NCBI GenBank assembly: GCA_020060105.1
Contig: JAGVAV010000023.1
Location: 14,905 to 78,904 of the forward strand
Direction: 5' to 3'
Source of the DNA: Candidatus Woesebacteria bacterium
GTDB lineage: Bacteria > Patescibacteriota > Microgenomatia > Woykebacterales > 2-01-FULL-43-14
Length of the DNA stretch: 64,000 nucleotides
Shown here: positions 1 to 30,059 of the stretch, piece after piece
Layout: the number at the start of each line of letters is the position of its first letter
Numbering within the stretch: position 1 is the stretch's first letter
Notes under the pieces: generated by a model
Told to the model about the DNA's origin: nothing
The model's database searches: none
Seen by the model: the letters and a program-made list of their open reading frames with translations, nothing else
Made by a program: the position numbers and the translations under genes

Positions 1-1
1 T

Positions 2-1873
2 AATCAAGTAGAAGTCCTTCTGTTTAAGCAAGCAATTGCTCAAGGATGGGATTGCCCGAGAGCAGCTATTTTATTACTTCAAAGAGAGTGGAACGCTGAA
101 AATTATGAATTTAACATCCAAACTCTTGGCCGAATAATGCGCATGCCAGAACAAAAGCACTACCAGAACCTCGTTTTAAACATTGGATACGTCTATACAG
201 CCTCTGATAACTTCAGTATTGTTGAAGATTTAGCCAAGGATTATGTAAGCAGAGTCCAAATGCTTAGGAACAATCAAATCTACAAACCAATTTTTCTACC
301 AAGTGAGTTTATAAGAAGAAAACGAGAAGTAACAAGGCTTTCAGGAAAATTTAAAGATTGTTTACTTGAAGCTAGTCAAGAAATAGACATGAGCAACAAA
401 ATCAACACAGGTATAGCTCAATTTAAAAAGGATATTGGGTTGGAAGGAACTCTTTCAAATATTAACAGGCTTCAGGAAGTTGAGTTTAGTTCTGTCGGAC
501 AAATATCGAAAGGTAGAGAAGAGGTTTTTTCTGAATATTCAAGTTTCCTTGCATCTCATACTTCACCATTTTCTAAAGCACGTTCAACCGAAATCTTAAA
601 AAGCAGTATGCGATCTTTGTTTAAACGAACTTTTGGAATAAGCAATGAGGATGAAATAGCCAATATTGTTATTAATCCAGTAAACAAAGATGCTTTCATC
701 GATCTTATCGACAAAGCTAAAGAAAAATATAAGTATCTACCAGAAAGAGAAGACGTTATTGTCACAGAGAAAGAATGGCAGATTCCAGAAAGTCTCAGTA
801 TTTTCGACAATTCTGATAAATTTAACCCTTCACAACGATCAATCATGCAGCCATTTAATGTAAAGGTTGATAAAAATTCTAGACTAAACCTTTCAAAACC
901 TGAAGTAACTTTTATTGAAGAGTTGGAAGGCACTGACAACGATATTCTTTGGTGGTTCAAGAATGGTGACAAAGAAAGCAAGTTCTTCGGAATTGCATAT
1001 AAAAAGGATGCTGGCTACTATGGTTTCTACCCAGATTTTCTTATTCAAACGAAAAAGGAACTTATTATAGTTGAAATAAAAGATAATCGTGATTTCAAAA
1101 ACGAGAACTTGTTAAAACTTAATGCTGGAAAAGAATATAGGAAAAAATATAAAGATTCACGTGGGCTATACTTTTTCATAATATCCCCAGACGATTATTA
1201 TAGATTCTTCCGCTGTTTAAAAGAGCAAGACATTTCCAACTTCAAATCTAAATACGAAGAGAACCTTACAAAATATAATCGAAGCCGTAAGGTTATTTCT
1301 GAAAAAACCAACGATTTATCAAAAGAAGATAAAGAATTATTAGAAATGTATGATGAAGAATTATCCAAAGCAATAAGAAACCTCGAAGATATAAAACTTG
1401 AAAAAGAAATTCTTGAAATTAACTTAAATGAAGCTAAATCAATTATCGATTCACTCAAGAAAAAAGAATCAGAGCTCGTAGAGCTAAAAGTTCCAAAGCC
1501 ATTTAACATTTGTATTTTAGGTGAAGTATCTGATGAAGATGAGGTTAAGAAAAGTTTGATGAGTTATTTCTCAAAATATGGCCTAAAGGCTACCGATTGG
1601 GAAGTAGAATTTTTTAACAACTCCAAATTAAAAAATAGTAACGTGTTAGTAGGATTAAAAAAGGGAAGGAGCCGTTACAGCCTTATCATCACAGGACAAA
1701 TTTACCATCATTCTGGAAAAGATAACCAAAGTGCAAACCTAGTTACTGAATTAAAAAAGCCACAATATATCGACTCGATAATTGGAAGTTCCCCAACAGA
1801 TCCATTAACACCCTCAAGCATGGTTGAAATGCTGGACCAGTACCTTTCGCCAGCAAGCTATGTTACAGCCTAA
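2..1873 (+). CDS. Type III restriction enzyme Res-like helicase/endonuclease, C-terminal part (5' end lies off the left edge), with an unusual ~270 aa coiled-coil-plus-extra-domain extension after the nuclease motif
   Basis: The frame is open from position 2. Helicase motif VI (QTLGRIMR) is followed ~300 aa later by a PD-(D/E)xK-like motif (YPDFLIQ...ELIIVEIKD). A coiled coil (EDKELLEMYDEELSKAIRNLEDIKLEKEILEINLNE) and a further ~130 aa domain follow. Confidence 0.55.
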   Translation, partial: NQVEVLLFKQAIAQGWDCPRAAILLLQREWNAENYEFNIQTLGRIMRMPEQKHYQNLVLNIGYVYTASDNFSIVEDLAKDYVSRVQMLRNNQIYKPIFLPSEFIRRKREVTRLSGKFKDCLLEASQEIDMSNKINTGIAQFKKDIGLEGTLSNINRLQEVEFSSVGQISKGREEVFSEYSSFLASHTSPFSKARSTEILKSSMRSLFKRTFGISNEDEIANIVINPVNKDAFIDLIDKAKEKYKYLPEREDVIVTEKEWQIPESLSIFDNSDKFNPSQRSIMQPFNVKVDKNSRLNLSKPEVTFIEELEGTDNDILWWFKNGDKESKFFGIAYKKDAGYYGFYPDFLIQTKKELIIVEIKDNRDFKNENLLKLNAGKEYRKKYKDSRGLYFFIISPDDYYRFFRCLKEQDISNFKSKYEENLTKYNRSRKVISEKTNDLSKEDKELLEMYDEELSKAIRNLEDIKLEKEILEINLNEAKSIIDSLKKKESELVELKVPKPFNICILGEVSDEDEVKKSLMSYFSKYGLKATDWEVEFFNNSKLKNSNVLVGLKKGRSRYSLIITGQIYHHSGKDNQSANLVTELKKPQYIDSIIGSSPTDPLTPSSMVEMLDQYLSPASYVTA

Positions 1874-1981
1874 TAACTTAAGAATTGTTAAAGCTGGGAA
1901 TGTAGATATAGCCGTTGTAACTTTGAACTGCAGTTCTAACGTTGTCTACAGTTTGCAGCCACTCGACCTCTTTGAAGAATA

Positions 1982-2016
1982 GGTGTGAACCTAACACACC
2001 CGGAGGGTGTGAAACC
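1982..2016 (+). repeat. Palindromic intergenic repeat, copy A (full-length GGTGTGAACCTAACACACCCGGAGGGTGTGAAACC)
   Basis: Exact 7-bp stem / 3-nt loop hairpin CACACCC-GGA-GGGTGTG. The 5' arm GGTGTG..CACACC can form an alternative hairpin. It is translated spuriously at the N-terminus of ORF 1985. Confidence 0.9.
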
Positions 2017-2059
2017 AATACTATTGCCACTCAAGCTTCGAAAAAGTATACTTAAAAAG

Positions 2060-2917
2060 ATGGATATTTTGATCTTTGGCACAGTTTGTATCGATCACAA
2101 TGTTACGGAAAGTGGAAAAATTACCTCTTGGGGCGGAACAGGAATGTTTATTTCCAAAATTCTCAGTCAACTCCCTCAAACCAATACAACTGTTATTTGC
2201 AACTACGGTCCTGACTATCTTGAATATCTTAAAGGTATAAATATTTATCCCTTATCACCGAGCGTTCCAAATACTTTAGTTTATGAAAACGTTAGCCAAG
2301 GAAAAACCCGGACTCAAAAAGCCTTATTTCGAGACAATTCCGAACCAGTGGAAATTACTCAAGATTTGAAATCAAAAATTGAAAATGCTCATATCATTTT
2401 CTTTGCCCCGCTGTTACCAAATCTTTCTACTGCTTATATCCACAAAGTGACGCAGCTTGCCAACAAAGAAAGTCTAAAAGTCCTTTTACCGCAAGGATAT
2501 TTTAGAAGCTTTGATAGTGAAGATAATGTCATACCACGAGACTTTCAGGAAGCGGCAGAAATGCTCCCTCTGGTAGATTTTGCCATCATCTCGGATCAAG
2601 ACACACAAGATGTGGATAATGTAGCACAAAACTGGGCGGAAAAAACAGGCGTTCAGGTTATTGTCACTAGGGGAGAGGATGGAGCAAGTATTATCTCTAA
2701 AGAAGAGAGCCAAGTAGTGCCAACTAAAGCGGTACCTCTGGAGGAAATCGTTGACTCCGTAGGCTCAGGCGATACCTTCAGCGCCGGTTTTGCCTATCAA
2801 TATTATTTAACCAAAGACATTACTAAAAGCCTTCGTTTCGCCAATAAACTAGCTGCCGCAAAACTTTATTTCAAACCAAAAGATATAAAGTTCGACTACG
2901 CAAAACTTCTAGACTAA
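2060..2917 (+). CDS. PfkB-family carbohydrate kinase (ribokinase-like)
   Basis: PfkB signature DSVGSGDTFSAGFAY near the C-terminus. ATG at 2060 (MDILIFGTVCIDH). The upstream part of ORF 1985 is a translation of the repeat. Confidence 0.8.
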   Translation: MDILIFGTVCIDHNVTESGKITSWGGTGMFISKILSQLPQTNTTVICNYGPDYLEYLKGINIYPLSPSVPNTLVYENVSQGKTRTQKALFRDNSEPVEITQDLKSKIENAHIIFFAPLLPNLSTAYIHKVTQLANKESLKVLLPQGYFRSFDSEDNVIPRDFQEAAEMLPLVDFAIISDQDTQDVDNVAQNWAEKTGVQVIVTRGEDGASIISKEESQVVPTKAVPLEEIVDSVGSGDTFSAGFAYQYYLTKDITKSLRFANKLAAAKLYFKPKDIKFDYAKLLD

Positions 2918-2934
2918 TTCGTCTAGTTTTTTTC
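2908..2934 (+). terminator. Putative intrinsic terminator of the pfkB-like gene
   Basis: Stem CTAGAC / GTCTAG with a 6-nt loop, followed by T7. It overlaps the stop codon. Confidence 0.4.
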
Positions 2935-2966
2935 AACCTTATCCCAGTTAACTATATTCCAAAACT

Positions 2967-2995
2967 AACCTAACACACCCGGAGGGTGTGAAACC
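2967..2995 (+). repeat. Palindromic intergenic repeat, copy B
   Basis: AACCTAACACACCCGGAGGGTGTGAAACC. Confidence 0.9.
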
Positions 2996-3182
2996 ATTAT
3001 CCGTTAGGTCCTATTTGTCTTTTGGAATTTTTTCCTACCGCTCGCTGACGAGATTACCATTTATTGATTATTCATGGACTCCAGGTCAAAGCGTTTAGTT
3101 TATTCAGTTTTAAAGGTATTTTAGAACAAATCTTCTCTAGATTACAAATTCCTGGTACAATAAATCCAGTTTGGAAGAAATT

Positions 3183-3704
3183 ATGAATGAAAATAATCTA
3201 GAAATACTTTCTTTACCTTTGGAAAGTTGGCAAGAGTATAAAGAACTTCGTTTGAGAGCTTTGCAGCGTGAACCCCAAGCGTTTGGATCTAATTATGCCC
3301 GAGAAGTTGAGTATCCAAACGAAAAATGGCAACAAAGAATCCAAGGAGTCATTGATGGTCAAGGTTTGATGCTATTTGCCAGATTAGACGGAAAACTTGT
3401 AGGCATGATTGGAGGATACCAAGATGACGACAATAAACCCCAAAAGAGAATTCAAATTTGGGGGATGTATGTTGATCCAGAAGCTCGCGGTAGAGGAATT
3501 GCAAAAACATTAATGAATAATCTAATTAGCAAAATCCGAGAGAGAGGAGATATTTTAATAGCTAAACTGGAAGTTAACGAAGACCAGGATCCAGCCAAAA
3601 AACTTTATGAGAATATGGGTTTCAAAATTGTTGGCACAAAAACAAGAGCTTTAGGAGATGGTAAAAAGCATCAGTTACTCGAAATGGAACTTGATCTTAT
3701 TTAA
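3183..3704 (+). CDS. GNAT family N-acetyltransferase
   Basis: GNAT motif A (QIWGMYVDPEARGRGIAKTLM). ATG at 3183; TTG at 3171 is an alternative start. Confidence 0.75.
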   Translation: MNENNLEILSLPLESWQEYKELRLRALQREPQAFGSNYAREVEYPNEKWQQRIQGVIDGQGLMLFARLDGKLVGMIGGYQDDDNKPQKRIQIWGMYVDPEARGRGIAKTLMNNLISKIRERGDILIAKLEVNEDQDPAKKLYENMGFKIVGTKTRALGDGKKHQLLEMELDLI

Positions 3705-3777
3705 GTTCACCCAACAGCACTTTTCTAACATACTTTGTGTTACTAGCACTTGTGCTGAGACCTATTGGAATATTAGT

Positions 3778-3803
3778 CTAACACACCCGGAGGGTGTGAA
3801 ACC
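3778..3803 (+). repeat. Palindromic intergenic repeat, copy C
   Basis: CTAACACACCCGGAGGGTGTGAAACC. ORF 3658-3861 is a spurious translation of it (LTHPEGVKP). Confidence 0.9.
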
Positions 3804-3811
3804 AGAAACCA

Positions 3812-4423
3812 TCATATTTTCAGCGTTGAAGAAACAAAGTCACAAAGAGGTTTGCCGATAGCTTTTTGCCAAAATTCATCTTGCTCTGACTGTTGCATCT
3901 CTGCAATATATTTACCACTTTCAGGATCAACTTGGAGGGACTCTAAAGGATACCCAGGAACAACTTTAGTGCTGATTTCACTTGTAAATACCCTAGGAGA
4001 AATGATATTTATTTCACCTAACGATCCTTGAGAATTAGCTATACAAACTCCAAATTCCCAATGTCCATTTATTCTTCCTCCCAATCTCTTAATAACTTCA
4101 GAATAATGTCTAAGTAAGTCTTCATCCGTTGGCCTTTTATCTCCATTACCAATCCTCCTAACATTTAGCCCTGGTTGTTGATCATCTGTTAATCCATCCA
4201 AATATAAGGCATTATCCATCGAGAGAATTGTCTGATTTAAAGCTTCTGCATAAGCTATAGCCTTCTTTCTAGCGTTCTCTATGGCTGTTTGACCGTCTTC
4301 ATCAACCTTGGGTAATAAATCCTTATTCTCTACACCTTTTACAGAAATATTAAGGGGAGCTAATGCACCAAGAATCTGTTTAACCTTAGCTTCATTGGTT
4401 GTCCCGACAATAATTTCTATCAT
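3812..4423 (-). CDS. Ham1/ITPase-like non-canonical NTP pyrophosphatase (divergent paralogue)
   Basis: N-terminal IIVGTTNEAKVKQ (compare ATGNxGK) and VDEDGQTAIENARKKA (compare ETGxTFxENAxxKA). Confidence 0.55.
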   Translation of the reverse strand: MIEIIVGTTNEAKVKQILGALAPLNISVKGVENKDLLPKVDEDGQTAIENARKKAIAYAEALNQTILSMDNALYLDGLTDDQQPGLNVRRIGNGDKRPTDEDLLRHYSEVIKRLGGRINGHWEFGVCIANSQGSLGEINIISPRVFTSEISTKVVPGYPLESLQVDPESGKYIAEMQQSEQDEFWQKAIGKPLCDFVSSTLKI

Positions 4424-4485
4424 TTCCTTTAATCCTGATAATCTTGAATATATCTTTCAAAATCCTCCACAGTTTGGACATAAAC

Positions 4486-5028
4486 TCATTCGAGTTCCTC
4501 TTTCTTTAACATCATTAAATACTTTTCCTCTTTTTCTGGTGGAACTTGAGTAGTTCTAAAATGTTTAAAGCCTACTTTTTCGTAAGATTTGATTGCTCTT
4601 ATATTCTTTAATTCTGGATCGACTATACAGGCACTTATTTCCCCTCTAACAAAAACAATCTCTTTAAGAAATTTTCTTAACATCCTACTACCCAAACCTT
4701 TACCCACAAACATCTGCTCGCCAATAAATAAATCTACACCGGCAATTCCCTCAGTACTTATATTTAACTGCAGAGAATAATCTGGGTAATCGCTTATTTT
4801 ATAAGTCTGAATAAAACCAAAAAGAGAATTTTCGTAGTAAACGATGTAACAATCAGTCGGTTCTTTTCCTTCAATACGAGGATTATATTTTTTAACGAGA
4901 GAATCAATATCACTTGCTTCGTCTCGCCCATACCATTCCTTTACAAAAGGTTCATTCAGCCATTTATGAAGCAGCGATAAATCATCAACTCGTAATCTTC
5001 GAAAAGAAATTTTATTTTCGTTCTGCAT
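4486..5028 (-). CDS. GNAT acetyltransferase resembling aminoglycoside 6'-N-acetyltransferase AAC(6')-Ib family
   Basis: WLNEPFVKEWYG, GKGLGSRMLRKFL and NIRAIKSYEKVGFK parallel the conserved AAC(6')-Ib blocks (WLNRPHIVEWWG / GKGLGTKLVRAL / NLRAIRCYEKAGF). Confidence 0.6.
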   Translation of the reverse strand: MQNENKISFRRLRVDDLSLLHKWLNEPFVKEWYGRDEASDIDSLVKKYNPRIEGKEPTDCYIVYYENSLFGFIQTYKISDYPDYSLQLNISTEGIAGVDLFIGEQMFVGKGLGSRMLRKFLKEIVFVRGEISACIVDPELKNIRAIKSYEKVGFKHFRTTQVPPEKEEKYLMMLKKEELE

Positions 5029-5194
5029 GAGTTAAGTATACCAATTTTCTCAAACAGTAATGAGTAGGGTAGTGGGGTAAGCACTAAAGTCGTAGGTTCT
5101 AAACATGTTGACCCCGGTTCAATCAAATCCCAATCAATCTTGGTTGACTACAGTCTGAATTACCAATCTGATCGCATAGTGATATAATACTTGC

Positions 5195-5533
5195 ATGATT
5201 ATTATCAAATCCGAACCTTACCTTCGGGAAGAAATAGAAAAACTTAAAGAACAGTTTGACGTTTATGTTAAAACAGTAATCGATGTTGAGAAAAAAGTTT
5301 GCTCGGCGGGAATGGGCAGGCACTATGAAGGTGAGGAGATCTTGATAAAACAAGGTTCGAAACAAAACGATATCTGGGGCGGGGGAGTCGATTTAGAAAC
5401 AAAAACAGTTGATTTTAACTCATTTATTAATATCAGGCCAAATCAAAGTAATCCCAGTAATGAAATCCTTGATCCAGTTTTAAGAAAAAAATATGAAGAT
5501 TTAACGAGGTATTTTTTCAAGGAAGTATTATGA
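5195..5533 (+). CDS. Small conserved hypothetical protein, first gene of a six-gene operon; apparently leaderless
   Basis: The ATG lies 6 nt after a TGATATAAT -10 element. The stop overlaps the next start (ATGA). Confidence 0.5.
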   Translation: MIIIKSEPYLREEIEKLKEQFDVYVKTVIDVEKKVCSAGMGRHYEGEEILIKQGSKQNDIWGGGVDLETKTVDFNSFINIRPNQSNPSNEILDPVLRKKYEDLTRYFFKEVL

Positions 5534-5832
5534 CTAGACAAGAGTTCGACACGTTAAACACCCTTGCTGCATTAGCTTTAGACTTAAAAAGAGCTTCTCT
5601 TGGAATTCACCGCGGGTCTATCCAAATGGCCAGACAGTTTGAAAAACAAGCCATGAATAGAAAAAACGAGATAAATCAAAATTACCTGAAAACGTATCTC
5701 CAACGCACCCTTAAGAAAACAGAGGAATCACTCCATTGTTCTGATGAAAAAAAGAAAGCCGAAGACCTTCTCACTTACAGCGTTATTTTCCAAAACTATG
5801 CCCAAAAGGCCCTGGCAGTAGAAATAAAATAA
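5530..5832 (+). CDS. Hypothetical protein (100 aa), translationally coupled
   Basis: ORF with a 4-nt overlap with the upstream gene; the next gene starts 5 nt downstream. Confidence 0.45.
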   Translation: MTRQEFDTLNTLAALALDLKRASLGIHRGSIQMARQFEKQAMNRKNEINQNYLKTYLQRTLKKTEESLHCSDEKKKAEDLLTYSVIFQNYAQKALAVEIK

Positions 5833-5836
5833 ACCT

Positions 5837-6361
5837 ATGACACAAAAACCAATCCAATATTTATTAGTGGGTCTCCCTTACTCGGGAAAGACTACATTAG
5901 CGAAAGAGCTAGTTAGTAGATTAGGATTTGCCTATATTAATATAGGCCAACTTAAGTGGGATAAGGGATATTCTGATGTTGGGGACGATGATGTCCCTGA
6001 TAAAGTATGGAAAGAAATCTTTGAAAAGGCGGATAAATTAATCCTTAAGTATTTAAACGAAGGAAAAAATCTGGCAAATGAGTATGCCTGGGTAACCAAG
6101 AAATGGAGAGACAGAGCAAGGAAAGTTGTCGCAAACGCAGGATTTGAAACAAGAACCATTTACCTGAAGATACCAGTAGAGGAAGTAAATAGAAGGTGGA
6201 TAGAAAACATTAAGACTAAAAATCACTTTCATTGGCCTAAAGATGAATTTAATAATTACTTAAGGGATTTTGAAGAACCAACTTTGGAAGAAAATGTGAT
6301 ATTGTATGATCAATCTATTCCTTTTGATAATTGGGTAAAGAAAAATAACTTTTATGGATGA
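5837..6361 (+). CDS. AAA_33-like P-loop kinase (polynucleotide / small-molecule kinase fold)
   Basis: Walker A GLPYSGKTTLAKEL. Size of 174 aa and layout fit the AAA_33 / zeta-toxin-like kinase class. Confidence 0.6.
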   Translation: MTQKPIQYLLVGLPYSGKTTLAKELVSRLGFAYINIGQLKWDKGYSDVGDDDVPDKVWKEIFEKADKLILKYLNEGKNLANEYAWVTKKWRDRARKVVANAGFETRTIYLKIPVEEVNRRWIENIKTKNHFHWPKDEFNNYLRDFEEPTLEENVILYDQSIPFDNWVKKNNFYG

Positions 6362-7336
6362 TTTAAGAACGGTAGTAAATCAAATCGTTAGTAAAAGTGT
6401 GGAGTTAAAAAATAAATATACCGAAGAAAAAACCGCTCCCGTAGAGTTTGCTTGCATTTTTTGCCAAACAGACGAAGAATATAAAAAATTTACTGATGAA
6501 GTTAAAGAACTAGGAAAAGTGGTTGAAGATACTCCAACGGGATTTACTTATTTATTAAGTGAACCTCTTCAAACTATTGCCGGCCCTTTAAGCCTAGTAA
6601 AAATAAGAATGCCTGAAAAATCAAGGAAAGAAAGAGGGGACGCTGACTTCAATACAAACTATTCAGAATTTAAAAATAAATATTTAAACCAGCCAAATTT
6701 TGAGTTAATTAAGCGAGACAACTTTGAAATGCTGCGATTATCGGAACCAGGCAACAATGTTATGGTCTGCTTCTCAAATACCCCTAAGAGCAAACTTTTC
6801 GGCATCCCCACTCAAGAGGAGAATCAGTTAAAATATTCCTTCAAACGGTACGAAGATTTCTTTCCGGAACTCTTTGAACAAGAGAAAAAAGACTAAGCGA
6901 CTTTTTGCCCGAACCTTATCGAATTGAGCATGTCGGCAGTACAGCCGTAGTTGGATTAGGAGGTAAAGGAATAATCGATATTTTGATCTCCGTTCCTAGA
7001 GAGAAAATGGGTGAGTATTCATCAAAATTACGAGAAGCTGGATATGTTTTTAGCCCTCAAGCATGTACAAAAGACAGATATTTTTACAAGCAGGATATAG
7101 AAACTGCCAAATATCGGACCAGAAGATTTCACATACACCTTACTTACCCGAGTAGTCAAGACGAACAAGAAACTTTGGCCTTTAGGGATTATCTTCGAAA
7201 CCACCCGGAAGAGGTAAAAAGATATTCCGATATTAAGGAAGAGGCAGGAGCTTTAGATAACGTTAACAAAAAAACGTACTGGGCCAAAAAGGAACCTGTG
7301 TTTCGAGATATTCTGTCGAAGGCGTTAAAAGAATGA
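6354..7336 (+). pseudogene. Unknown N-terminal domain fused to a GrpB-family (UPF0157) nucleotidyltransferase-fold protein; reading frame broken by a -1 shift at an A6 tract (6885-6890)
   Basis: The GrpB N-terminal block (KRYEDFFPELFEQEKK) ends ORF 6354-6896 in frame 0. The GrpB core (IEHVGSTAVVGLGGKGIIDILI) continues in frame 2 from 6905. One extra A in the tract would give the in-frame junction EQEKKRLSDFLPEPY, which matches GrpB. Confidence 0.55.
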
Positions 7337-7357
7337 GTAATATGGTATAAATTAGTT

Positions 7358-8017
7358 ATGAATATCGAATTTGAAGCCACATTTCCAAACGTTGATAAAG
7401 ATAAAATTAGAGAAAAACTACGAAAGATAAATGCACAGTTAGTCAAACCTGAATTGTTACAAAAAAGGTCCGTCTATCGTTTACCTTCGGGACATGAAAT
7501 TAATGGAGGCTGGTTAAGAGTGAGAGACGAGGGAGATAAGGTTACAATGAGTTTAAAAGTAGTAGACGGCGACAAAATAGAAAACCAAAAAGAAGTTTGT
7601 TTGACTGTAGATAATTTTAAACAAGCAGAGTTACTTTTAATTACAATAGGTTGCGAGAAAAAAGCGTACCAAGAAAGCAAAAGAGAGCTATGGAAATTTG
7701 ATAATGTTGAAATTACTATCGATGAGTGGCCGTTTCTTGAGCCATTTGTAGAAATAGAAGGAAAGTCAAAACAAGAAGTAAAGAAAGTTTCGGAATTACT
7801 TGGTTTTGAATTTAATAAAGCGTTATTTTGTGCCGTAGATACTCTATACAGCCAAAAATACGCAATTTCAAAAGACTGGATCAATAACAAAACACCCTCA
7901 ATTGTTTTTAATGAAGAAAACCCTTTCTTAAACAATAGTAAGTTGAGTGGTGGGGTAAGCCTCCCATTTAAAGGTTCTAAAGATGTTGACACAGACAACC
8001 ATTCGACTTCGTCCTGA
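7358..8017 (+). CDS. CYTH-domain protein (triphosphate tunnel metalloenzyme / class IV adenylate cyclase-like)
   Basis: N-terminal MNIEFEATF...K..R (CYTH ExExK signature) and WLRVRDEGDKVTMSLK. The last ~40 codons overlap an inverted-repeat region and may not be real. Confidence 0.55.
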   Translation: MNIEFEATFPNVDKDKIREKLRKINAQLVKPELLQKRSVYRLPSGHEINGGWLRVRDEGDKVTMSLKVVDGDKIENQKEVCLTVDNFKQAELLLITIGCEKKAYQESKRELWKFDNVEITIDEWPFLEPFVEIEGKSKQEVKKVSELLGFEFNKALFCAVDTLYSQKYAISKDWINNKTPSIVFNEENPFLNNSKLSGGVSLPFKGSKDVDTDNHSTSS

Positions 8018-8115
8018 GTAAAATCGAGGGACTTCGTTCATAGTCTTTGACCACTTGTTAACAACGGCAACTTTATATCTTTCACAAGTCGAATGTCTCG
8101 AGCGAAGTCGAGAGG
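7995..8115. repeat. Nested inverted repeats at the 3' end of the operon (CATTCGACTTCG / CGAAGTCGAG / CAAGTCGAATG)
   Basis: Complementary segments seen directly in the sequence. Possible terminator or structured RNA. Confidence 0.35.
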
Positions 8116-8201
8116 CCATATCATTTTATCTTGTCCTATCTAGAAAACAAAATACTTAGAAATAAAACAGGCGTGAAAACCACCTCAACATGTTTATAAT
8201 T

Positions 8202-8230
8202 GACTTACTGCTTTGTCTTCAGTATAATCT
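8202..8230 (+). promoter_or_regulatory. Sigma-70-like promoter TTGACT-17-TATAAT
   Basis: Consensus hexamers with a 17-nt spacer, upstream of the G9 tract and the small ORF. Confidence 0.45.
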
Positions 8231-8256
8231 CAACTACAATAAACGAGGGGGGGGGA

Positions 8257-8373
8257 ATGAACACTCAAACGACTTCAACAACGCTGTGGAAGCATCTCCT
8301 AAGCAACGCTAAAACTCCCAAAACCTTACCGTCATTTTTCCACAAATGGCGGTCTTTCTTTAATATCCCTTGA
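8257..8373 (+). CDS. Putative 38-aa small protein whose ribosome-binding region is a G9 homopolymer
   Basis: ATG 1 nt after GAGGGGGGGGG (the G run is 8247-8255). ORF reads MNTQTTSTTLWKHLLSNAKTPKTLPSFFHKWRSFFNIP. It is below the ORF-track size cutoff. Confidence 0.25.
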   Translation: MNTQTTSTTLWKHLLSNAKTPKTLPSFFHKWRSFFNIP

Positions 8374-8565
8374 AGTAAACTAAATCTGCAAGAAAGCTTA
8401 AAAATCAACCGTCAACATTACTTAACCACATTTGAGAAAGACCCAAGAAAAAATCTCTAAGTAAGAATAATCTTTATCACAAGGTAAGGAGACTAACCTG
8501 CTAGAATGTTGTAAACACTCCAAGAAAAAACTATTTTTATCTTTAGTTCCCTTTGGTGATCGTCT

Positions 8566-9114
8566 ATGGATCAAAATATCCAACCCTTTGACTTACAACG
8601 CATGTTTTTTGGAGACTATCCTCTGCTTTTCCTACTGGAAGTCCTCTTCAGAACAGCCTTCATGTACCTTTATATGCTGCTAGCTTCCAGATTTCTTGGA
8701 AAACGAGGAGTCGGACAGCTTACTCCATTCGAATTTATTATCGTTATCGTCTTAGGCTCGGCGGCAGGGGACCCGATGTTTTATCCTCAGGTATCTCTGC
8801 TCCAGGGAGTAGCCGTCATAACAGTCGTAGTATTGCTCGAAAAGGTAATTGCCGAACTATCTCAAAGAAACAAGAAGCTGGAACATATCATACAGAGCAC
8901 CCCACAACTTTTAGTCAAAAACGGACAAGTTCTGGATAAAGCTTTAAATGAATCTGGACTAACCAAACAAGAGCTGTTAATGCAGCTTCGAACGGAAAAC
9001 ATAAGAGATATCGGTGAGGTAGAATACGCTTACCTTGAACCGATGGGAAAACTAAGCGTTTTTAAGCTAGAAGGGGGGAAAGAAAAGAAAGTAGAAACTA
9101 CTCTCCCACAATAA
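8566..9114 (+). CDS. DUF421 (YetF-like) membrane protein
   Basis: LGKRGVGQLTPFEFIIVIVLGSAAG is typical of DUF421. Confidence 0.6.
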   Translation: MDQNIQPFDLQRMFFGDYPLLFLLEVLFRTAFMYLYMLLASRFLGKRGVGQLTPFEFIIVIVLGSAAGDPMFYPQVSLLQGVAVITVVVLLEKVIAELSQRNKKLEHIIQSTPQLLVKNGQVLDKALNESGLTKQELLMQLRTENIRDIGEVEYAYLEPMGKLSVFKLEGGKEKKVETTLPQ

Positions 9115-9131
9115 CCATTAGATAATATTAT

Positions 9132-9157
9132 GAACCTAACACACCCGGAGGGTGTGA
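9132..9157 (+). repeat. Palindromic intergenic repeat, copy D (3' end diverged)
   Basis: GAACCTAACACACCCGGAGGGTGTGA. Confidence 0.85.
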
Positions 9158-9233
9158 GTGCAAGTTGTCAATAGTTCCAGCTTAGGTCAATTTGTTTGTT
9201 GAATCCATTTTTCCCTAAAACTAAAATTCCAGC

Positions 9234-11918
9234 ATGCCGAATAAACCAATTTGCGATATTTGTCATATCCGACCCGCTACTCATACCATCCAAGTATCTA
9301 GAAATGGAAAAAGGGAAATAATCCAAGTTTGCGACGTCGATTACCAAAACGCTATAGAGCAACGAGGTTTTTTCTCACCCTTTGAGTCTTCCTTTGGTGC
9401 AGACCCTTTCGGATTCTCCTCTGATTACTACGATAATTTTGAAAACCTTTCTTCTCGGATAGGTTTTCCCATTCCCAGACACCGTGAATCCGTCGACATT
9501 GACCAGTTCTTCTCCGAACACACCAAAGAACTGATTCAAAAAGCTGCTCAAAAGGTCATTGAGTCTGGCAGAAACGAACTTGACACTGAGCATCTTCTGT
9601 ACGCCCTTATTGATAGCGATGTCATTACCGAAATCTTGGAACAATTCAATATCAATCCAAAAGATCTTAAAGGATACGTTGAAGACAACATCCCAAAAGG
9701 CAGGTTAGATAAGAAGGAAAAAGCCGAAGTCACTGTCTCTCCAAGAGTAAAAAATGTTATCGAAAAAGCCTTCGAAGTTTCTCGAGAAATGGGACATAGC
9801 TATATCGGTCCCGAACATTTGTTATTAGGGCTGGCAATGGAAGAAGATGGCTTGGCCTACGATATTCTAAAAAGCTACGGGTTAAATGCAAATGCCATTC
9901 GGCAACAAACGTTAAAAGTGGTTGGTCGAGGAGCGAAGGAAGGCCGAGTCGAAACTAAAACCAAGACGCCTCAACTCGACAAATATTCCCGCGATTTATC
10001 CAGGTTAGCCAAAGAAGGAAAACTAGACCCGGTTATCGGCAGATCCGATGAAATTGAGACAACGATTGAAATTCTCTCTCGAAGAACAAAAAATAATCCC
10101 GCATTGATCGGAGAACCCGGCGTCGGAAAAACAGCGATAGTTGAAGGACTAGCCCAAAGAATTGAAAACCGCGACGTTCCGGAAGTGTTGCTGAATAAAA
10201 GAGTGGTCGAATTTAATATCAATTCCATTGTCGCCGGATCTAAGTACCGAGGAGAATTTGAGGAAAGAATTAAAGAAGTCATCGACGAGATAGTTGTTCA
10301 TAAAGACGAATTGATTATTTTCGTTGATGAGCTGCATAACATTGTCGGTGCCGGAGCAACCGGAACGGAAGGTGGCCTAGATGTCTCTAACGTAATCAAA
10401 CCCTACCTGGCCCGGGGAGAACTTCACCTGATCGGAGCCACCACTCTAAATGAGTACCAGAAATATATTGAAAAAGACATGGCTTTGGAACGAAGATTTC
10501 AGCCTGTCTTTATTTCCGAACCGACCGTCCTCCAAACAATTGAGATTCTTCGCGGATTGCGGGACAAGTATGAAGCTCATCACAAAGTTAAAATTACAGA
10601 TGAGGCGATCGTTGCCGCAGCCGAACTTTCAAATAAATATATTAGTACCCGCTTCTTGCCTGATAAGGCAATCGATCTCGTGGACCAAGCCGCTTCTAGA
10701 GTGAGAATCCTTTATGCTTCGAAACCAGAAACCGTCAAAAAAATCGAAGAAAAAGTGACCCGATTAAAGAGGGAAGAAGAATCAGCCACTTCTCGAAGAC
10801 AATACGATCAAGCGAAAAGGTACGCTGAGGAAATTCAAGCCCTAGAAAAAAATATTGAAGAAGAAAGGGCTAACTGGCGAAGAGAAAGGGGAGTTACCAC
10901 CGGCGAAGTGAAAAAGGAACACATTGCTCAAATCGTTTCCAAAATCACAGGTATTCCTGTAACTGACCTTACGCAAGAAGAAAGAGAACGGCTTTTGAAA
11001 ATGGAAGAAAAACTTCACCAGCGAGTCATTGGTCAAAACGAAGCAGTTACCGCTGTTTCGGACGCGGTTCGTCGCTCCCGAGCAGGCTTAACGAGTGGAA
11101 AACACCCAATTGCCACCCTTATGTTTCTCGGCCCAACCGGGGTGGGAAAAACCGAACTGGCTAGATCTCTGGCGTGGGTCATTTTTGGGGATGACGAAGC
11201 CTTGATTCGATTGGATATGAGCGAGTATAGGGAAAGGCACTCTGTTTCTAGATTAATCGGCGCTCCACCGGGCTATGTGGAGTATGAAGAAGCCGGGCAA
11301 CTCACCGAATCCATTCGAAGACGGCCTTACAGCGTTGTCTTGCTTGATGAGATTGAAAAAGCCCATCCAGACGTTTTCAATATTCTTTTACAGGTTTTAG
11401 ACGACGGCCGGCTCACTGACAGTAAAGGACGAACGGTTGATTTTACCAATACTATTATTATCGCCACAAGCAATCTCGGCTCTGATATTATTTACAAAAA
11501 TTTAATGACCAAGCAGAAAAAATCTTACGAAGAATTAAGAGGGGAGTTAAATATTTTACTCAAGAATTACTTCCGACCAGAGTTTTTGAACCGAACCGAT
11601 GAAATTATTGTTTTTCATGCTCTCACTGAAGAAGAAATAAAGACCATTACTAAGCTTCGGTTAGAAAGACTTAAGGTAATGGCTCGGGGGCAGGGAATTG
11701 ATCTTTCTTTCGATAAATCGGCCGTTGAACACATCGCCAAAGAAGGCTTTGCCCCAGAATTTGGAGCGCGAGAACTTCAAAGAAAAATCAAAACAGAGAT
11801 CGAAAACCCTCTCGCTAAAGAAGTGTTGAGCGGAAAAATAAAAGAAGGGGAGAAAATCGTGGCTTTTTTCGATCCTGTAAATCATGTTTTCAATTTTTCC
11901 CATTCAGCTTCTCCCTAA
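9234..11918 (+). CDS. clpC: ATP-dependent Clp protease ATP-binding subunit ClpC/ClpA-type, with an N-terminal Cys/His-rich extension
   Basis: Clp_N repeats (EHLLYALI, EHLLLGLA). Two AAA modules (GEPGVGKTAIVEGLA; GPTGVGKTELARSLA). N-terminal CDICHIRPATH...VCDVDY. Confidence 0.9.
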   Translation: MPNKPICDICHIRPATHTIQVSRNGKREIIQVCDVDYQNAIEQRGFFSPFESSFGADPFGFSSDYYDNFENLSSRIGFPIPRHRESVDIDQFFSEHTKELIQKAAQKVIESGRNELDTEHLLYALIDSDVITEILEQFNINPKDLKGYVEDNIPKGRLDKKEKAEVTVSPRVKNVIEKAFEVSREMGHSYIGPEHLLLGLAMEEDGLAYDILKSYGLNANAIRQQTLKVVGRGAKEGRVETKTKTPQLDKYSRDLSRLAKEGKLDPVIGRSDEIETTIEILSRRTKNNPALIGEPGVGKTAIVEGLAQRIENRDVPEVLLNKRVVEFNINSIVAGSKYRGEFEERIKEVIDEIVVHKDELIIFVDELHNIVGAGATGTEGGLDVSNVIKPYLARGELHLIGATTLNEYQKYIEKDMALERRFQPVFISEPTVLQTIEILRGLRDKYEAHHKVKITDEAIVAAAELSNKYISTRFLPDKAIDLVDQAASRVRILYASKPETVKKIEEKVTRLKREEESATSRRQYDQAKRYAEEIQALEKNIEEERANWRRERGVTTGEVKKEHIAQIVSKITGIPVTDLTQEERERLLKMEEKLHQRVIGQNEAVTAVSDAVRRSRAGLTSGKHPIATLMFLGPTGVGKTELARSLAWVIFGDDEALIRLDMSEYRERHSVSRLIGAPPGYVEYEEAGQLTESIRRRPYSVVLLDEIEKAHPDVFNILLQVLDDGRLTDSKGRTVDFTNTIIIATSNLGSDIIYKNLMTKQKKSYEELRGELNILLKNYFRPEFLNRTDEIIVFHALTEEEIKTITKLRLERLKVMARGQGIDLSFDKSAVEHIAKEGFAPEFGARELQRKIKTEIENPLAKEVLSGKIKEGEKIVAFFDPVNHVFNFSHSASP

Positions 11919-12020: not shown

Positions 12021-13001
12021 ATGAGTGACCAGAACATTAAGTGGAACAATAAAGTTAAGCTTGTTTTAGCCGATGTCGATGAGACGATAGCGGATGTTTA
12101 TACTCCCGCGGAGCCGGAAATGATCGGAGAACTAACCTCTGTCCTTGAAGAAGGGGTAGTTATCTTTTTCGTTACAGGAGCAAGCCTCGCGAGGGTCGAA
12201 TCGAGAATTACTAATCAAATTCCAGGCCATCTGAGAAGATTTACATTAGTAAGCCACTGTAACGGGGCAGAAGTATGGGGGTTTAATAGCGAGGGAGATA
12301 AAAAGGAGAAGCCCTTTTACAGTCTCTATGATGAAACTTTTTCCCAACAACAAAAAGATAAATGGCGAGAAATTGTCAAACAACTAATTGAAGAGTTTAA
12401 ACTCTCGGTCTACCCGGCAACTAAAGTTTCGGAGTTTAAAACGATGGCTGGCCATAATCCGCTAGCCGTAATGCTCGAAGATAGAGGACCGCAAATAACT
12501 TTTGAATTTGTTAACGGTTATGACCTCACACCGGAACAGGAAAAACAGCTAGAAATGTCCGTGCCACAAACTAATGGAGCACTAGATTTAAGAATTCCGG
12601 TGCTCGAAAGAGCAGATCGCCTGTTTCAAGAAAATAATATTCCGGTTACGCCAAGATTAGGAGGAATATTTGCCCTAGATTTTGCCATAAAAGGGGTATC
12701 AAAAACCTACTCAGTAAAGCACGTTCTCGAAAATGAAAATATCCTTGAGTCTGCCGGTTTATCAAGACAAGATTTAGAAAATCCAGATCACATTGAGATC
12801 TGGGGCGATAAATTTGATCAATTTAGAGGCGGCACGGATCGGCATATGTGCGAGGCGGTAAACCCAAAGGTTAGAGCGATTGACTTTCGTGAGGAAGACC
12901 CTTCCGGTTTTCTTCCTGGCTACAACGTGGTAATTTGGAAGGGAAAATATCACCTACACCATGGTTTACTAGAGTATCTTAAATCTCGACATAACAAGTA
13001 G
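12021..13001 (+). CDS. HAD-superfamily hydrolase (IIB-like phosphatase)
   Basis: Motif I LADVDETIAD (DxDxT). A distal GDKFDQ acidic motif. Confidence 0.6.
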   Translation: MSDQNIKWNNKVKLVLADVDETIADVYTPAEPEMIGELTSVLEEGVVIFFVTGASLARVESRITNQIPGHLRRFTLVSHCNGAEVWGFNSEGDKKEKPFYSLYDETFSQQQKDKWREIVKQLIEEFKLSVYPATKVSEFKTMAGHNPLAVMLEDRGPQITFEFVNGYDLTPEQEKQLEMSVPQTNGALDLRIPVLERADRLFQENNIPVTPRLGGIFALDFAIKGVSKTYSVKHVLENENILESAGLSRQDLENPDHIEIWGDKFDQFRGGTDRHMCEAVNPKVRAIDFREEDPSGFLPGYNVVIWKGKYHLHHGLLEYLKSRHNK

Positions 13002-13030
13002 GTGTGAACCTAACACACCCGGAGGGTGTG
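13001..13030 (+). repeat. Palindromic intergenic repeat, copy E (full 5' arm)
   Basis: GGTGTGAACCTAACACACCCGGAGGGTGTG immediately after the HAD stop codon. Confidence 0.9.
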
Positions 13031-13149
13031 TTAGTGGAGTTACAAGTCGGGGCTAGCCCTGATCCAATCGGGGCTGGCGGATCAAGTTAAATGGGTGTAT
13101 AATTCTTTCCAACGAGAACAAAATTCAGATTGGAAGGAGGGTGAGAGCC

Positions 13150-13465: not shown

Positions 13466-13503
13466 AAACCGTCGACGAAAAAAACGTTGGCGGTTTTTCT
13501 TTG
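13466..13503 (+). terminator. Rho-independent terminator ending GGCGGTTTTTCTTTG
   Basis: GC-rich hairpin ACCGTCGACG...CGTTGGCGG followed by TTTTTCTTT. Confidence 0.6.
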
Positions 13504-14577: not shown

Positions 14578-14710
14578 TCCCTGATTGATTAGAAAAGTAG
14601 AGATTAAAAGTAACAAAAGTGTATTCAAAAGAGAACCGTCCCCTTAGCCTTGCTTTTTATTCACGTTTATCCTTATAATAAGTCCCAAAGAAAATTCAAG
14701 GAGGGGGACA

Positions 14711-16064: not shown

Positions 16065-16092
16065 CTTGTTAAACTTGCCTATAGTTGTATAA
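16065..16092 (+). promoter_or_regulatory. Putative promoter containing CCTATAGTTG and TATAAT
   Basis: TTGTTA-16-TATAAT with the CCTATAG motif inside. Exact -35 assignment is ambiguous. Confidence 0.35.
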
Positions 16093-16138
16093 TATATCTC
16101 TAGAAAGCTATCCAGATATTAGGAAAGGAGAGGAAGCA

Positions 16139-16810
16139 ATGTCTGCGGTAGTGGCTCTAAAGGAGCTGAAAGAGAGAATTAGCCACGTAAAATCTTCATT
16201 GGTAATGGCTCTAAAGAAGCTAAAGGGGAGACTTAGCCACGTAAAATCTTCATCCTGGCACTTTCAGTTCGTTGAAATGGTCTGGAAGGAGGGCGCTCGG
16301 AACTCGAAAGCTTGTTCGTATTACTGGGTTAAGTTTCCCACCTCGATGCTGATCGTTCTATTGGTTCTTTGCTTAGTTGGGGTGGTTTATCCCGTGGGGT
16401 GGTTCCTAGGCTTCCAGTTTAAGTTTTCAGCACCTAAAAGCGGCGAGTATAATGAGGGTGGTGAATTATTTTACCCTTACAAAACCACCAGAAAAGGTAA
16501 AAAGGTCCGGTTTGCTCCGTGGGAAATCGCTATGGGGATTTGCTGGGCCTTGATCGTAATCTTGGTGGCCCACCATCTAGTTTTCAATGACCCGGCCTTG
16601 GGCGTCGGGATACTCACGTATGGAGCATTGACAGTCGCGTTAGTCACTCTCTGCGTGCTGCTGTGGCCCGTGTTACGGAAGAAGGCAACTTCAAGTGATC
16701 GACCCAGACTTAGGCTGTTTTCTTTCCGGGGCAGTATCGACAATCGGCTCACCCGCAATCTGTCTTCTTTTTGGGACAGGGTCTGTCCCAAACTAATCGT
16801 TGACGAATAA
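16139..16810 (+). CDS. Hypothetical membrane protein with an internal 54-nt tandem duplication
   Basis: RBS GGAAAGGAGAGG upstream of the ATG. The duplicated 18-aa unit is ALKELKERISHVKSS / ALKKLKGRLSHVKSS. Multiple TM segments. Confidence 0.5.
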   Translation: MSAVVALKELKERISHVKSSLVMALKKLKGRLSHVKSSSWHFQFVEMVWKEGARNSKACSYYWVKFPTSMLIVLLVLCLVGVVYPVGWFLGFQFKFSAPKSGEYNEGGELFYPYKTTRKGKKVRFAPWEIAMGICWALIVILVAHHLVFNDPALGVGILTYGALTVALVTLCVLLWPVLRKKATSSDRPRLRLFSFRGSIDNRLTRNLSSFWDRVCPKLIVDE

Positions 16811-16834: not shown

Positions 16835-16870
16835 CCGCCAGTAAAGAAATATACTGGCGGTTTTTCTTTG
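16835..16870 (+). terminator. Rho-independent terminator ending GGCGGTTTTTCTTTG
   Basis: Perfect 9-bp stem CCGCCAGTA / TACTGGCGG followed by TTTTTCTTT. Confidence 0.65.
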
Positions 16871-17068
16871 GCAAATGATCCAAACCCATCCTCTTCTCCT
16901 CACACTTTGCCAAGATATTTCCTAAACCGAGGTCTAACCTAAGGCGGGTTTGAAAAAAGCTTTGATAAAAGATCTTTACCTTTTTTTAAAGATTTGCTAA
17001 TATTAGGACTGTTGTCTTCATTAGGGCTCATAAAAGTTTAGAAATTTTTAAAAAATTATTCTTTTACT

Positions 17069-25842: not shown

Positions 25843-26040
25843 TAAGACGATTATACCAGAAAACTGCCGAAATGTACATTTAGCTTCGCCGTTTTACGCT
25901 TAGTATAAGTTCGGAAGGGGGACGTTTCTCTTTTGAATACGAAATTGGTTAATTTTTTAAGTTAACGGCTTCCTAACGATACACTCTTAATCTCTTTCCT
26001 TCTCCTTGACACCTGCCAACCCTTCCCTTATCATAAATAT

Positions 26041-28605: not shown

Positions 28606-28617
28606 GGGTGTGAAACC
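28606..28617 (+). repeat. Partial copy (3' half GGGTGTGAAACC) of the palindromic repeat
   Basis: 12-nt identity to the 3' arm of the repeat. Confidence 0.5.
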
Positions 28618-28729
28618 AAATTGTACAGAAAATTTGAGGAAAAGAAAACCCGCCTTAAGCATTTCTGCAAAAAGCGGGCCTGTCCACCGAAGCTTTACGC
28701 GAAGGTGGGCGAACCAAGTTTCCGAGAAT

Positions 28730-29689
28730 CTAGTTCCTAGACCGGCGGAGACCGACAGCCGAACCCCATTTCCCGTCCGAATCGTCAACCCAGGCGACGT
28801 TGAACTCGAGCCCGCCGTCGAAGCAGAAGAGCAGGCAGTACTCGTCGAACTGGGACTCGCCGCCAGGATCATACTCGTCTCCAGGGAAATCGATGTGCAA
28901 AAGGTCGTTATTGCCGAGACGGGTGTGGTCGATCAGTAGGATACTACCGCCAACAATGGCCGGCCAAGCCCACCGATCTCTGTTCACGTACATCGTATCT
29001 TCTCGACAACATCTCGGACTCCAGCCCCCACACTCTTTTCCGAAGGAGCCGAGTTCGAGAATGTAGTCCCCTTTGGTTTGAGAATCAACCCATTCCAAGT
29101 ATTGTCGGGTGGGCGACCAGAGTCGAACGTGCTTTTCGGTAAGAGCGTCCTTTCGGTAGTTGTAGAACCTCCCATCGTAGGCTTTGACCAGACGGTCTTT
29201 GATTAGCCATTCCAGGCAAGGGCCATAGCCTTTGCCGTAAGGGTCTTTGGCCCCGACGATCTTTCCCACCAAATCCAGTCGAGGTCGCCAGTACACCCGC
29301 TGATCACACCAGGGGGGAATCACCAGACCGCTTTCCGGCTCCACGATGCAAGAAGCATCCAGCTCCGGAATGGCTTTCTGGAATCCTTCCGCCCATCGCT
29401 GTGCGGTTAAAACCGGCCAGGGATTAGGGTAAGACCGCGTTGGCGTGACCTTTTCATTGGCGTACTTGTTGCTCAAACTTTCGAAGGTTAGTGCTCCTGA
29501 TGAAAGAATCTGTTCGATCTGCCGAGCTTCGGTGGAGTCGTGGGGCAATCGGACCAGTTGTGCGATCCGTTCGTTGTACCATTTCGGGTCCTGATGATAG
29601 CCGTCTCCTCCCAACTCTTTGGGAAGCCGGTCTCCCAGTGCTTTGATCATCTCCCAGATTTGCCCGGGAGTCGCCTGTGTTTTTCCCAC
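28730..29689 (-). CDS. Hypothetical protein, markedly GC-rich gene
   Basis: GTG start after AAGGAGAGG. GC content is well above the neighbours. Flanked by repeat copies. Confidence 0.5.
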   Translation of the reverse strand: MGKTQATPGQIWEMIKALGDRLPKELGGDGYHQDPKWYNERIAQLVRLPHDSTEARQIEQILSSGALTFESLSNKYANEKVTPTRSYPNPWPVLTAQRWAEGFQKAIPELDASCIVEPESGLVIPPWCDQRVYWRPRLDLVGKIVGAKDPYGKGYGPCLEWLIKDRLVKAYDGRFYNYRKDALTEKHVRLWSPTRQYLEWVDSQTKGDYILELGSFGKECGGWSPRCCREDTMYVNRDRWAWPAIVGGSILLIDHTRLGNNDLLHIDFPGDEYDPGGESQFDEYCLLFCFDGGLEFNVAWVDDSDGKWGSAVGLRRSRN

Positions 29690-29770
29690 AGTAACCTCTC
29701 CTTAATTTTTTACTTCTGCTATAAAGCAGAGCAATTACTATATATACCAAATACCAAAAATTGGCTTGAA

Positions 29771-29782
29771 TGTCAACTATAG
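29771..29782 (-). promoter_or_regulatory. CCTATAGTTGACA motif (minus strand) upstream of the 28730-29689 gene
   Basis: The reverse complement reads CTATAGTTGACA. The downstream -10 is weak (TATTTG). Confidence 0.35.
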
Positions 29783-29871
29783 ATCGCCTCTGGATCGGGA
29801 AGCTAGGGAGAGAATCGCAATGCGGCAGCCAAGTAGAGCCCCCATAGCCCGACCGAAATGTCTAAATAGTT

Positions 29872-29900
29872 AACCTATCACACCCGGAGGGTGTGAAACC
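29872..29900 (+). repeat. Palindromic intergenic repeat, copy F
   Basis: AACCTATCACACCCGGAGGGTGTGAAACC. Confidence 0.9.
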
Positions 29901-30059
29901 GTATATATCTTTCTGGTCTGCACCCTCATCTTTATCCTTGTCAAATTCCAACTCGGCCGACGCCTAAAGCGGAAACCTTCAACTATAACTGCCTAGTTTT
30001 GCTAACCGATTTCACGGTAGATTGTTGCTTCGTTTAAAACCGCTTTCTAAACTTAAGGT

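Follow-up and report, generated by a model that had tools for sequence, protein, structure and literature searches.

A hairpin repeat of single orientation, possibly of REP type, in the intergenic DNA of a Patescibacteria genome, with a half copy at the end of a horizontally acquired gene module

Characterised systems of repetitive extragenic palindromic (REP) elements typically show inverted doublets, known as REPINs or BIMEs, and a GTAG-type 5' motif (PMC3116915), and the HUH/Y1 transposases, RAYT as well as the TnpA of IS200/IS605, recognise hairpins in a sequence-specific manner on one strand (PMC3116915, PMC3337134). Among integrons, clusters of attC sites without a nearby integrase (called CALIN, for attC clusters that have no integron-integrase) are a known state and a chimeric attI/attC junction has been described, and the very small genomes of the survey were without complete integrons (PMC4889954). 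Here we analyse a window of 64 kb of chromosomal DNA (contig JAGVAV010000023.1) from an uncultivated bacterium of the Patescibacteria or candidate phyla radiation (CPR). The window, by which we mean this whole stretch, carries genes for ClpC, pyruvate kinase and purine biosynthesis, and a short hairpin-forming repeat recurs in it between genes, among them a PfkB-family kinase gene (pfkB) and a GNAT acetyltransferase gene. CPR genomes are tiny and gene-dense, and to our knowledge little has been learnt of their mobile DNA; a one-orientation hairpin repeat at the end of an acquired gene would give a handle on how accessory genes are shuffled and acquired in reduced genomes. We put at about even the chances that the repeats are a lineage-specific REP-type family of short extragenic palindromic elements, able to coincide with rearrangement breakpoints. 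As it stands the gain is modest, namely an apparently lineage-restricted new repeat family and one well-documented junction.

An exact 27-mer, CTAACACACCCGGAGGGTGTGAAACCA, occurs three times on the + strand, at 1991-2017, 2970-2996 and 3778-3804, against a chance expectation of 0.00 matches from dinucleotide shuffles. Two variants appear when up to 3 mismatches are allowed, 9136-9162 with 3 and 29875-29901 with 2. In a sixth copy (13010-13036) the hairpin is intact and the 3' flank is a different one; a search for the hairpin only (ACACCC-NNN-GGGTGT) recovers it at 13015-13029. At 28606-28617 the 12-mer GGGTGTGAAACC is a true copy of the repeat's 3' half (5 matches with at most 1 mismatch, 0.18 being expected), as a preliminary description of this DNA had proposed. 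That description also saw pfkB and GNAT each bracketed by copies of the repeat, which the exact 27-mers and the Pfam assignments of the two genes bear out; its coordinates need a slight correction, the first repeat starting at about 1980-1991 (at 1874 only the spacer begins) and, in the third bracket, the full copy at 29875 instead of 29872. A covariance model built from the six copies, and run with filters off on both strands of the 64-kb window, returned the six full copies only, all on the + strand, besides weak palindromic echoes of the same sites, and no copy on the - strand. All six full copies and the half copy are intergenic and on the + strand. The bias of the full copies towards a single strand (6/6) has a two-sided binomial p of ~0.03, and the occupation of three successive intergenic spacers a P of ~0.023 by length-weighted simulation.

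The core of the repeat is 27 nt long and its longest forms reach about 37-43 nt; beyond ~43 nt the flanks of the copies are unrelated. Both stem strands and the loop are among the invariant columns of the alignment (21/43), the invariant part being C-TA-(A/T)-CACACCC-GGA-GGGTGTG. The stem is a perfect 7 bp without bulged bases, closed by a GGA loop, and this 17-nt hairpin is identical in 6/6 copies while the flanks diverge, which points to a sequence-specific recognition beyond structural need. All copies fold, at -12 to -20 kcal/mol in segments of 56-66 nt, with z-scores of -1.4 to -2.9; the region of copy 1 folds as two adjacent hairpins (-16 kcal/mol, z -2.9) and copy 5 has a folding energy of -19.7 kcal/mol.

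Copy 1 in its long form (1980..2017, 60.5 bits) consists of TAGGTGTGAAC followed by the core CTAACACACCC-GGA-GGGTGTGAAACCA at 1991-2017, with the stop codon of a Res-like gene 117 nt before it and the -35 box of pfkB 7 nt after it. Copy 2 (2970..3009, 57.3 bits) is made of the core at 2970-2996, 6 nt and GTTAGGT at 3003-3009, the reverse complement of the ACCTAAC at 2968-2974, which extends across the core's start. Copy 3 (3778..3804, 56.8 bits) stands between the convergent GNAT and Ham1 genes and ends 7 nt before the Ham1 stop codon. Copy 4 (9136..9162, 55.8 bits), whose 3' flank is GAGTGCA, is found 21 nt past the YetF stop codon and upstream of a leaderless-type ClpC promoter (9199-9227), and copy 5 in its long form (12999..13036, 52 bits) starts 8 nt past the stop codon of a HAD-like gene. 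Copy 6 (29875..29901, 57.2 bits), a CTATC variant with GAAACCG on its 3' side, sits 158 nt upstream of a DAO/Rieske gene. The 3' continuation of the hairpin is mostly AAACC(A/G); it is AGTGCA in copy 4 and TTAG in copy 5, which thereby becomes an 11-3-11 palindrome, CTAACACACCC-GGA-GGGTGTGTTAG. The flanks are mosaic, the 5' extension TAGGTGTGAA common to copies 1 and 5 being joined to 3' GAAACCA in the former and to 3' TTAG in the latter. Within this extension TAGGT pairs with ACCTA to give a second, small hairpin, and the extension also comes close to a direct repeat of the 3' half (GGTGTGAA(A)CC). TTAGGT, complementary to the 5' ACCTAA, follows the 3' strand of the stem at 7 nt in copy 2 and at 25 nt in copy 4. 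Elsewhere in the window, 32 nt past an HNH endonuclease gene (52666-53337, 223 aa), the hairpin ACACCC-CGG-GGGTGT (53369-53383) has the same 6-bp stem with another loop (CGG) and unrelated flanks, and is a doubtful relative of the family.

The half copy (28606..28617, + strand) directly abuts the end of a self-contained GC-rich module (28618..29818, - strand, 52.5% GC), made up of an upstream region, an orphan gene and a terminator. The gene (28730-29689, - strand) encodes a protein of 319 aa without any family match: searches of Pfam, NCBIfam, PHROG and PDB gave nothing for it, nor did it match any phage or plasmid, and its AlphaFold model, with a mean predicted local distance difference test (pLDDT) score of 32.6 from 4 sequences, is unusable. 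Only three homologues exist among 5.8 billion representative sequences; the best (73%) comes from the metagenome-assembled genome (MAG) that also holds the best pfkB relative (GCA_023485445.1, contig L079). Positions 28618-29818 of the window are 74.6% identical in nucleotides to 9873-11094 of that contig, and the neighbouring genes differ. Towards the terminator the homologous stretch runs exactly up to the half repeat and no further (28617/28618); towards the promoter it breaks off at 29818, which leaves 56 nt to the core of copy 6, and past both ends the similarity is at shuffle level. The GC content of the module is 51-53% in both genomes, against ~38-46% for its neighbours, which agrees with the initial view of a GC-rich orphan, and its amino-acid identity is 73%, against 35-62% for the other shared proteins compared. 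Since it is GC-rich in both genomes and more similar than the other shared proteins, the orphan is, as judged from sequence comparison, a horizontally acquired, self-contained single-gene unit, one end of which coincides with the repeat. In contig L079 the orphan is placed between an IS1595 transposase fragment (9070-9672) and an uncalled reverse-transcriptase-like fragment (~11185-11420). The end of that contig carries an rve_3 fragment, and the region as a whole is mobile-element debris. In the third genome with the orphan (contig L083) the flanks are too diverged for defining the ends of the module.

The idea that repeats mark the junctions of acquired genes thus stands for the orphan module, whose homology ends at the half repeat and whose GC content sets it apart, and does not carry over to pfkB and GNAT. 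These two have the same low GC at third codon positions (GC3) as their nine neighbours and are not compositional outliers in their block, so they are not individually foreign.

By kind, the repeat family appears to be a REP-type variant, new and restricted to this lineage, and its place at a documented junction of horizontal gene transfer is one of its differences from the characterised REP systems. As in the REP/REPIN-RAYT systems, the elements are palindromes of 20-40 nt, strictly extragenic (short, repeated and found in extragenic DNA only, as six copies and a half copy) and lineage-specific, with conserved flanking bases, and singletons occur in those systems too (PMC3116915, PMC3337134). 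REP and REPIN elements are also thought to act through single-stranded hairpins (PMC3116915, PMC3337134). A second likeness is to the ends of IS200/IS605 and of the non-autonomous palindrome-associated transposable elements (PATEs), with their subterminal hairpins in direct orientation, on one strand and at both ends of the mobilised DNA; IS200/IS605 elements have no terminal inverted repeats and make no target duplication, and their strand-specific insertion leads to a uniform orientation. The literature search returned no description of REP-type repeats in Patescibacteria.

We propose that the hairpin with its conserved flanks (5' ACCTAA, 3' AAACCA) would form on single-stranded DNA and be recognised by a trans-encoded sequence-specific enzyme, for which an HUH/Y1 transposase like RAYT or that of IS200/IS605 is the likeliest candidate, and that the same enzyme would seed copies into intergenic DNA in one orientation. 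The invariant stem and loop, the reassorted flanks, the single orientation and the restriction to intergenic DNA fit such a sequence-specific recognition of a hairpin on one strand. Co-oriented copies may then act as preferred breakpoints, either through this enzyme or through short-homology recombination, with the enclosed genes being mobilised and self-contained single-gene units ending up beside or between copies. Their use as breakpoints would account both for the junction at the orphan module and for the cassette-like look of the pfkB and GNAT region.

Several observations weigh against a REP-like family. The copies are co-oriented singletons, all on the + strand, without the inverted doublets (REPINs) that are the replicating unit of REP/REPIN-RAYT systems, and their 5' flank is ACCTAA in place of a GTAG-type motif. 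Pfam searches of the open reading frames (ORFs) called across the 64 kb detected no integrase, recombinase or transposase and no Y1/RAYT transposase, the only nucleases being the Res-like protein and the HNH endonuclease at 52666-53337. REP/REPIN-RAYT systems have tens to hundreds of copies per genome and a single-copy RAYT gene flanked by the repeats; the density of copies seen here is only about 1 per 10 kb, all six falling within the first 30 kb and none in the last 34 kb of the window. The evidence for a junction comes from one module and one relative, and of the two ends only one is exact. The comparison with IS200/IS605 also has its limits: neither TnpA nor TnpB was found in the window, there are no identifiable cleavage or target motifs, and adjacent units share one hairpin here, whereas such elements carry their own left and right ends. 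Lastly, five of the six copies are in sense orientation to a + strand gene, 8-117 nt past its stop codon.

This last position explains the single orientation equally well if the hairpin works in RNA, as a 3'-end element that stabilises transcripts against 3' exonucleases, serves as a processing or pause site or insulates leaderless units, its location at a junction being incidental. The genome is AT-rich and the stem is GC-rich and stable; immediately downstream, neighbouring genes have leaderless-type promoters of their own; and in the unrelated low-GC contigs L009, L043 and L044 the same 17-nt hairpin is the stem of what resembles a terminator, with a T-run. We nevertheless find this rather unlikely. 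The hairpin is followed by GAAACCA and not by a U-tract; a canonical pfkB terminator already precedes copy 2; copy 6 is in a divergent promoter region, outside any 3' untranslated region; and the half copy runs antisense to the gene behind whose 3' end it lies. The loop and both stem strands are, moreover, invariant with no compensatory changes, unlike a purely structural RNA hairpin. A role in RNA and a REP-like origin are not mutually exclusive.

As an intrinsic terminator proper, the repeat can be dismissed: GAAACCA, GAGTGCA or TTAGTGG follows the hairpin without a U-tract, and 0/6 copies were called as a + strand terminator. The terminator of pfkB precedes copy 2 and its promoter follows copy 1, so that the repeat is not needed for termination there. 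A pure terminator role thus fails on the missing U-tract, on the redundancy with the pfkB terminator and on the copy in the divergent promoter region. Sequence-conserved terminator repeats are known, such as inverted pairs of DNA uptake sequences (DUS) in Neisseria and conserved terminator motifs in mycobacteria. Our repeat resembles these in being a repeated, sequence-conserved hairpin downstream of genes, and the same three points set it apart from them.

The 7-3-7 palindrome CACACCC-GGA-GGGTGTG could also be an operator, bound upstream of promoters by a dimeric regulator, an explanation to which we give very little credence. It is a perfect palindrome, and copy 1 ends 7 nt upstream of the -35 box of pfkB and copy 4 lies 37 nt upstream of that of ClpC. 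The distances, which vary widely, speak against it. If transcription starts at the start codon, as is likely for these leaderless-type promoters, the centre of the hairpin is at about -57 for pfkB and about -86 for ClpC; for GNAT and DAO/Rieske it lies ~200 nt and ~170 nt upstream of the start codon, and copy 3 has no + strand gene downstream. The flanks, asymmetric and conserved, never change orientation, and an identical 27-mer in three copies is atypical for operators.

The region had been likened in the preliminary description to a gene-cassette array. As in integrons, small accessory genes are set apart one by one by imperfect palindromes of the same orientation; GNATs are a typical cargo of cassettes; and the third bracket, with a half site on one side and a full site on the other, resembles a chimeric attI/attC junction followed by an attC (PMC4889954). 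The analogy with integrons does not survive a comparison of the sites and of their genes. The conserved block of the repeat is 27 nt long, or at most ~43 nt. attC sites span roughly 57-141 nt. The R''-L''...L'-R' architecture of attC is absent, the repeat being a simple perfect 7-bp hairpin, unlike attC without extrahelical bases. A GTTRRRY core follows copy 2 only (GTTAGGT, 3003-3009), and copies 1 and 3 have none in the downstream flank. Integron cassettes are mostly promoterless and expressed from Pc, and pfkB here has a promoter, TTGCCA-17-TATACT, and a terminator of its own. No IntI (PF00589 with its extra domain) and no other tyrosine or serine recombinase was detected by Pfam in the called ORFs of the window; within these 64 kb the search for an integrase, suggested with the analogy, came back empty. 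Housekeeping genes such as ClpC have copies beside them as well. An integron is thus ruled out by the length of the sites, by the R' core that two of the three array copies lack, by promoters that belong to the genes themselves and by the absence of an integrase from the ORFs scanned.

A hairpin-site cassette system, analogous to integrons and unrelated to them, is a more distant prospect than a role in RNA, and we give it a small chance. A recombinase encoded elsewhere would act on the 27-nt sites, with the crossover falling between CTAACACACCC, the 5' half, and GGGTGTGAAACCA, the 3' half; circles of single genes would be excised and inserted at full or secondary sites. Two modules are indeed each bounded by identical co-oriented sites, and the third bracket has the geometry expected of a secondary site, with the 3' half at the left junction and the full site at the right one. 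The orphan module is foreign and its contexts differ in three genomes, the context of pfkB differs in each of three relatives, and the copies show reassorted flanks on either side of the hairpin; attC clusters without an integrase are, besides, known (PMC4889954). The counter-evidence is as follows. No recombinase was detected in 64 kb. The copies at 9136 and 13010 bracket ClpC and the HAD-like gene and the segment from 3778 to 9136 holds nine genes, multi-gene brackets that the cassette claim had passed over, and the enclosed segments are therefore not cassettes. The GC3 of pfkB and GNAT is that of their neighbours. The right end of the orphan module falls 56 nt short of the repeat, and the relative that carries the same module is without such a site. 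Very small genomes were also without complete integrons in the survey cited above (PMC4889954).

Slighter still is the prospect of a previously undescribed gene-capture system of Patescibacteria, in which a recombinase encoded elsewhere moves pfkB, GNAT and the orphan as self-expressing modules by way of the hairpin sites. The half-site and full-site junctions of the orphan would then be the footprint of a secondary-site integration, and one would be dealing with integron-like capture built on a different site and a different enzyme. The cassette-like look can be put down to three identical copies filling three successive intergenic spacers in a low-GC accessory block.

Neither 185,579 species genomes nor the JGI metagenomes nor the loci of the relatives contain the repeat with its flanks, which fits a family specific to one lineage. 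A 20-mer matched the species genomes once, inside an archaeal MAG's coding region, as often as chance predicts, and had no match in the JGI metagenomes. The bare 17-nt hairpin gave 70 metagenome matches and 1 viral match, about what a rough chance estimate predicts; all of them lack the CTAAC/GAAACC flanks, no related organism is among their sources and some belong to other, unrelated repeat families. One of these, CTCCACACCCGGAGGGTGTGGGGTAGTAGC, is a dispersed repeat built on the same 17-nt hairpin in an unrelated organism of ~58% GC (contigs L017, L029, L031, L060, L065, L069 and L072 of sample Ga0265316, and L068 and L077 of other samples). Contig L047 holds two copies of yet another hairpin family, 882 nt apart. 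No analogous hairpin family was found in the loci of the relatives.

No close relative exists in the databases searched, the best being 71% identical for ClpC and 62% for pfkB. Of the window proteins present in the collection, each is the sole member of its 90%-identity cluster, except for two alternative calls of the orphan gene on the same contig. The pfkB homologues (best 62%) are annotated as Patescibacteria or Saccharimonadales. In the 62% relative, pfkB follows MurT and GatD, has no promoter of its own and is followed by a convergent SodA; in a second relative it adjoins a helix-turn-helix gene, and in a third it lies between a Band_7 gene and ribosomal protein genes. Conserved synteny, which would have spoken against cassettes, was accordingly not seen. 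ClpC equally has no conserved neighbourhood in its nearest relatives (69-70% identity), and with relatives so distant the lack of synteny says little.

The pfkB gene (2060..2917, + strand) encodes a PfkB-family sugar or nucleoside kinase of 285 aa (Pfam PF00294, E=6.9e-21) and the GNAT gene (3183..3704, + strand) an acetyltransferase of 173 aa (PF00583, E=8e-23). The pfkB promoter (2024..2052, + strand) has 10/12 consensus matches, its -10 box ending 7 nt before the ATG at 2060, and the terminator, CTAGAC-loop-GTCTAG followed by T7 (2909..2933, + strand), overlaps the stop codon, so that pfkB is an autonomous unit with both signals inside its bracket. The ClpC promoter has the same leaderless-type geometry. 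In both genes the -10 box lies 7 nt before the ATG (2047-2062 for pfkB, 9222-9236 for ClpC), which suggests leaderless mRNAs in this organism.

Both pfkB and GNAT belong to a low-GC block, bases 1-8100, with 35.9% GC against 45.3% for the rest of the window and a GC3 of 0.25-0.40 over eleven consecutive genes. It contains the Res-like helicase-nuclease, pfkB, two GNAT genes, Ham1 (3812-4423; a second paralogue is at 41193-41744), an AAA_33 kinase, GrpB and CYTH. The block looks like an acquired or accessory island, and its right edge (8017-8566) coincides with no copy of the repeat. The gene next to the array, 1-1873, runs off the left edge of the window and had been considered as a recombinase; what it encodes is a Type III Res-like helicase-nuclease, of which the C-terminal two thirds lie in the window and whose homologues have 700-940 aa and an N-terminal ResIII domain. 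Its weak TnsA_N match in Pfam is due to the PD-(D/E)xK nuclease domain.

Other identities of the repeat were considered and set aside. The copies of the array are spaced by 979 and 808 nt, with complete genes inside, and not by the non-coding spacers of 25-50 nt of a CRISPR array. In pdif/Xer modules, 28-bp XerC-6 bp-XerD sites alternate in inverted orientation; our sites are all direct, and inspection revealed no 11-6-11 Xer-type architecture. A fragment of tRNA or tmRNA acting as an att site is not indicated, there being no tRNA in the window and the geometry of the stem-loop being unlike that of a T-arm. GTGAAAC is shared with parS, the 16-bp palindrome of which is lacking on inspection. 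Rfam returned nothing at gathering thresholds over the whole window, and two chance matches to snoRNAs at E<=5 over 1900-3900.

A second hairpin family, terminator-like, with ACCGTC...GGCGGT followed by TTTCTTT, occurs downstream of + strand units at 8328-8353, 13466-13496, ~16855-16875 and ~36004-36024. The first of these closes a small stand-alone transcription unit (8200-8360) between the low-GC block and YetF, with a near-consensus promoter (TTGACT-17-TATAAT), a poly-G ribosome-binding site and an ORF of ~35 codons from 8258. Two intergenic stretches of 23 nt, 14621-14643 and 25918-25940, form an inverted repeat pair, 96% complementary and 11 kb apart. Finally, a tandem duplication of 54 nt (89% identity) is found at 16147-16253, inside an ORF (16085-16810) without a family match.

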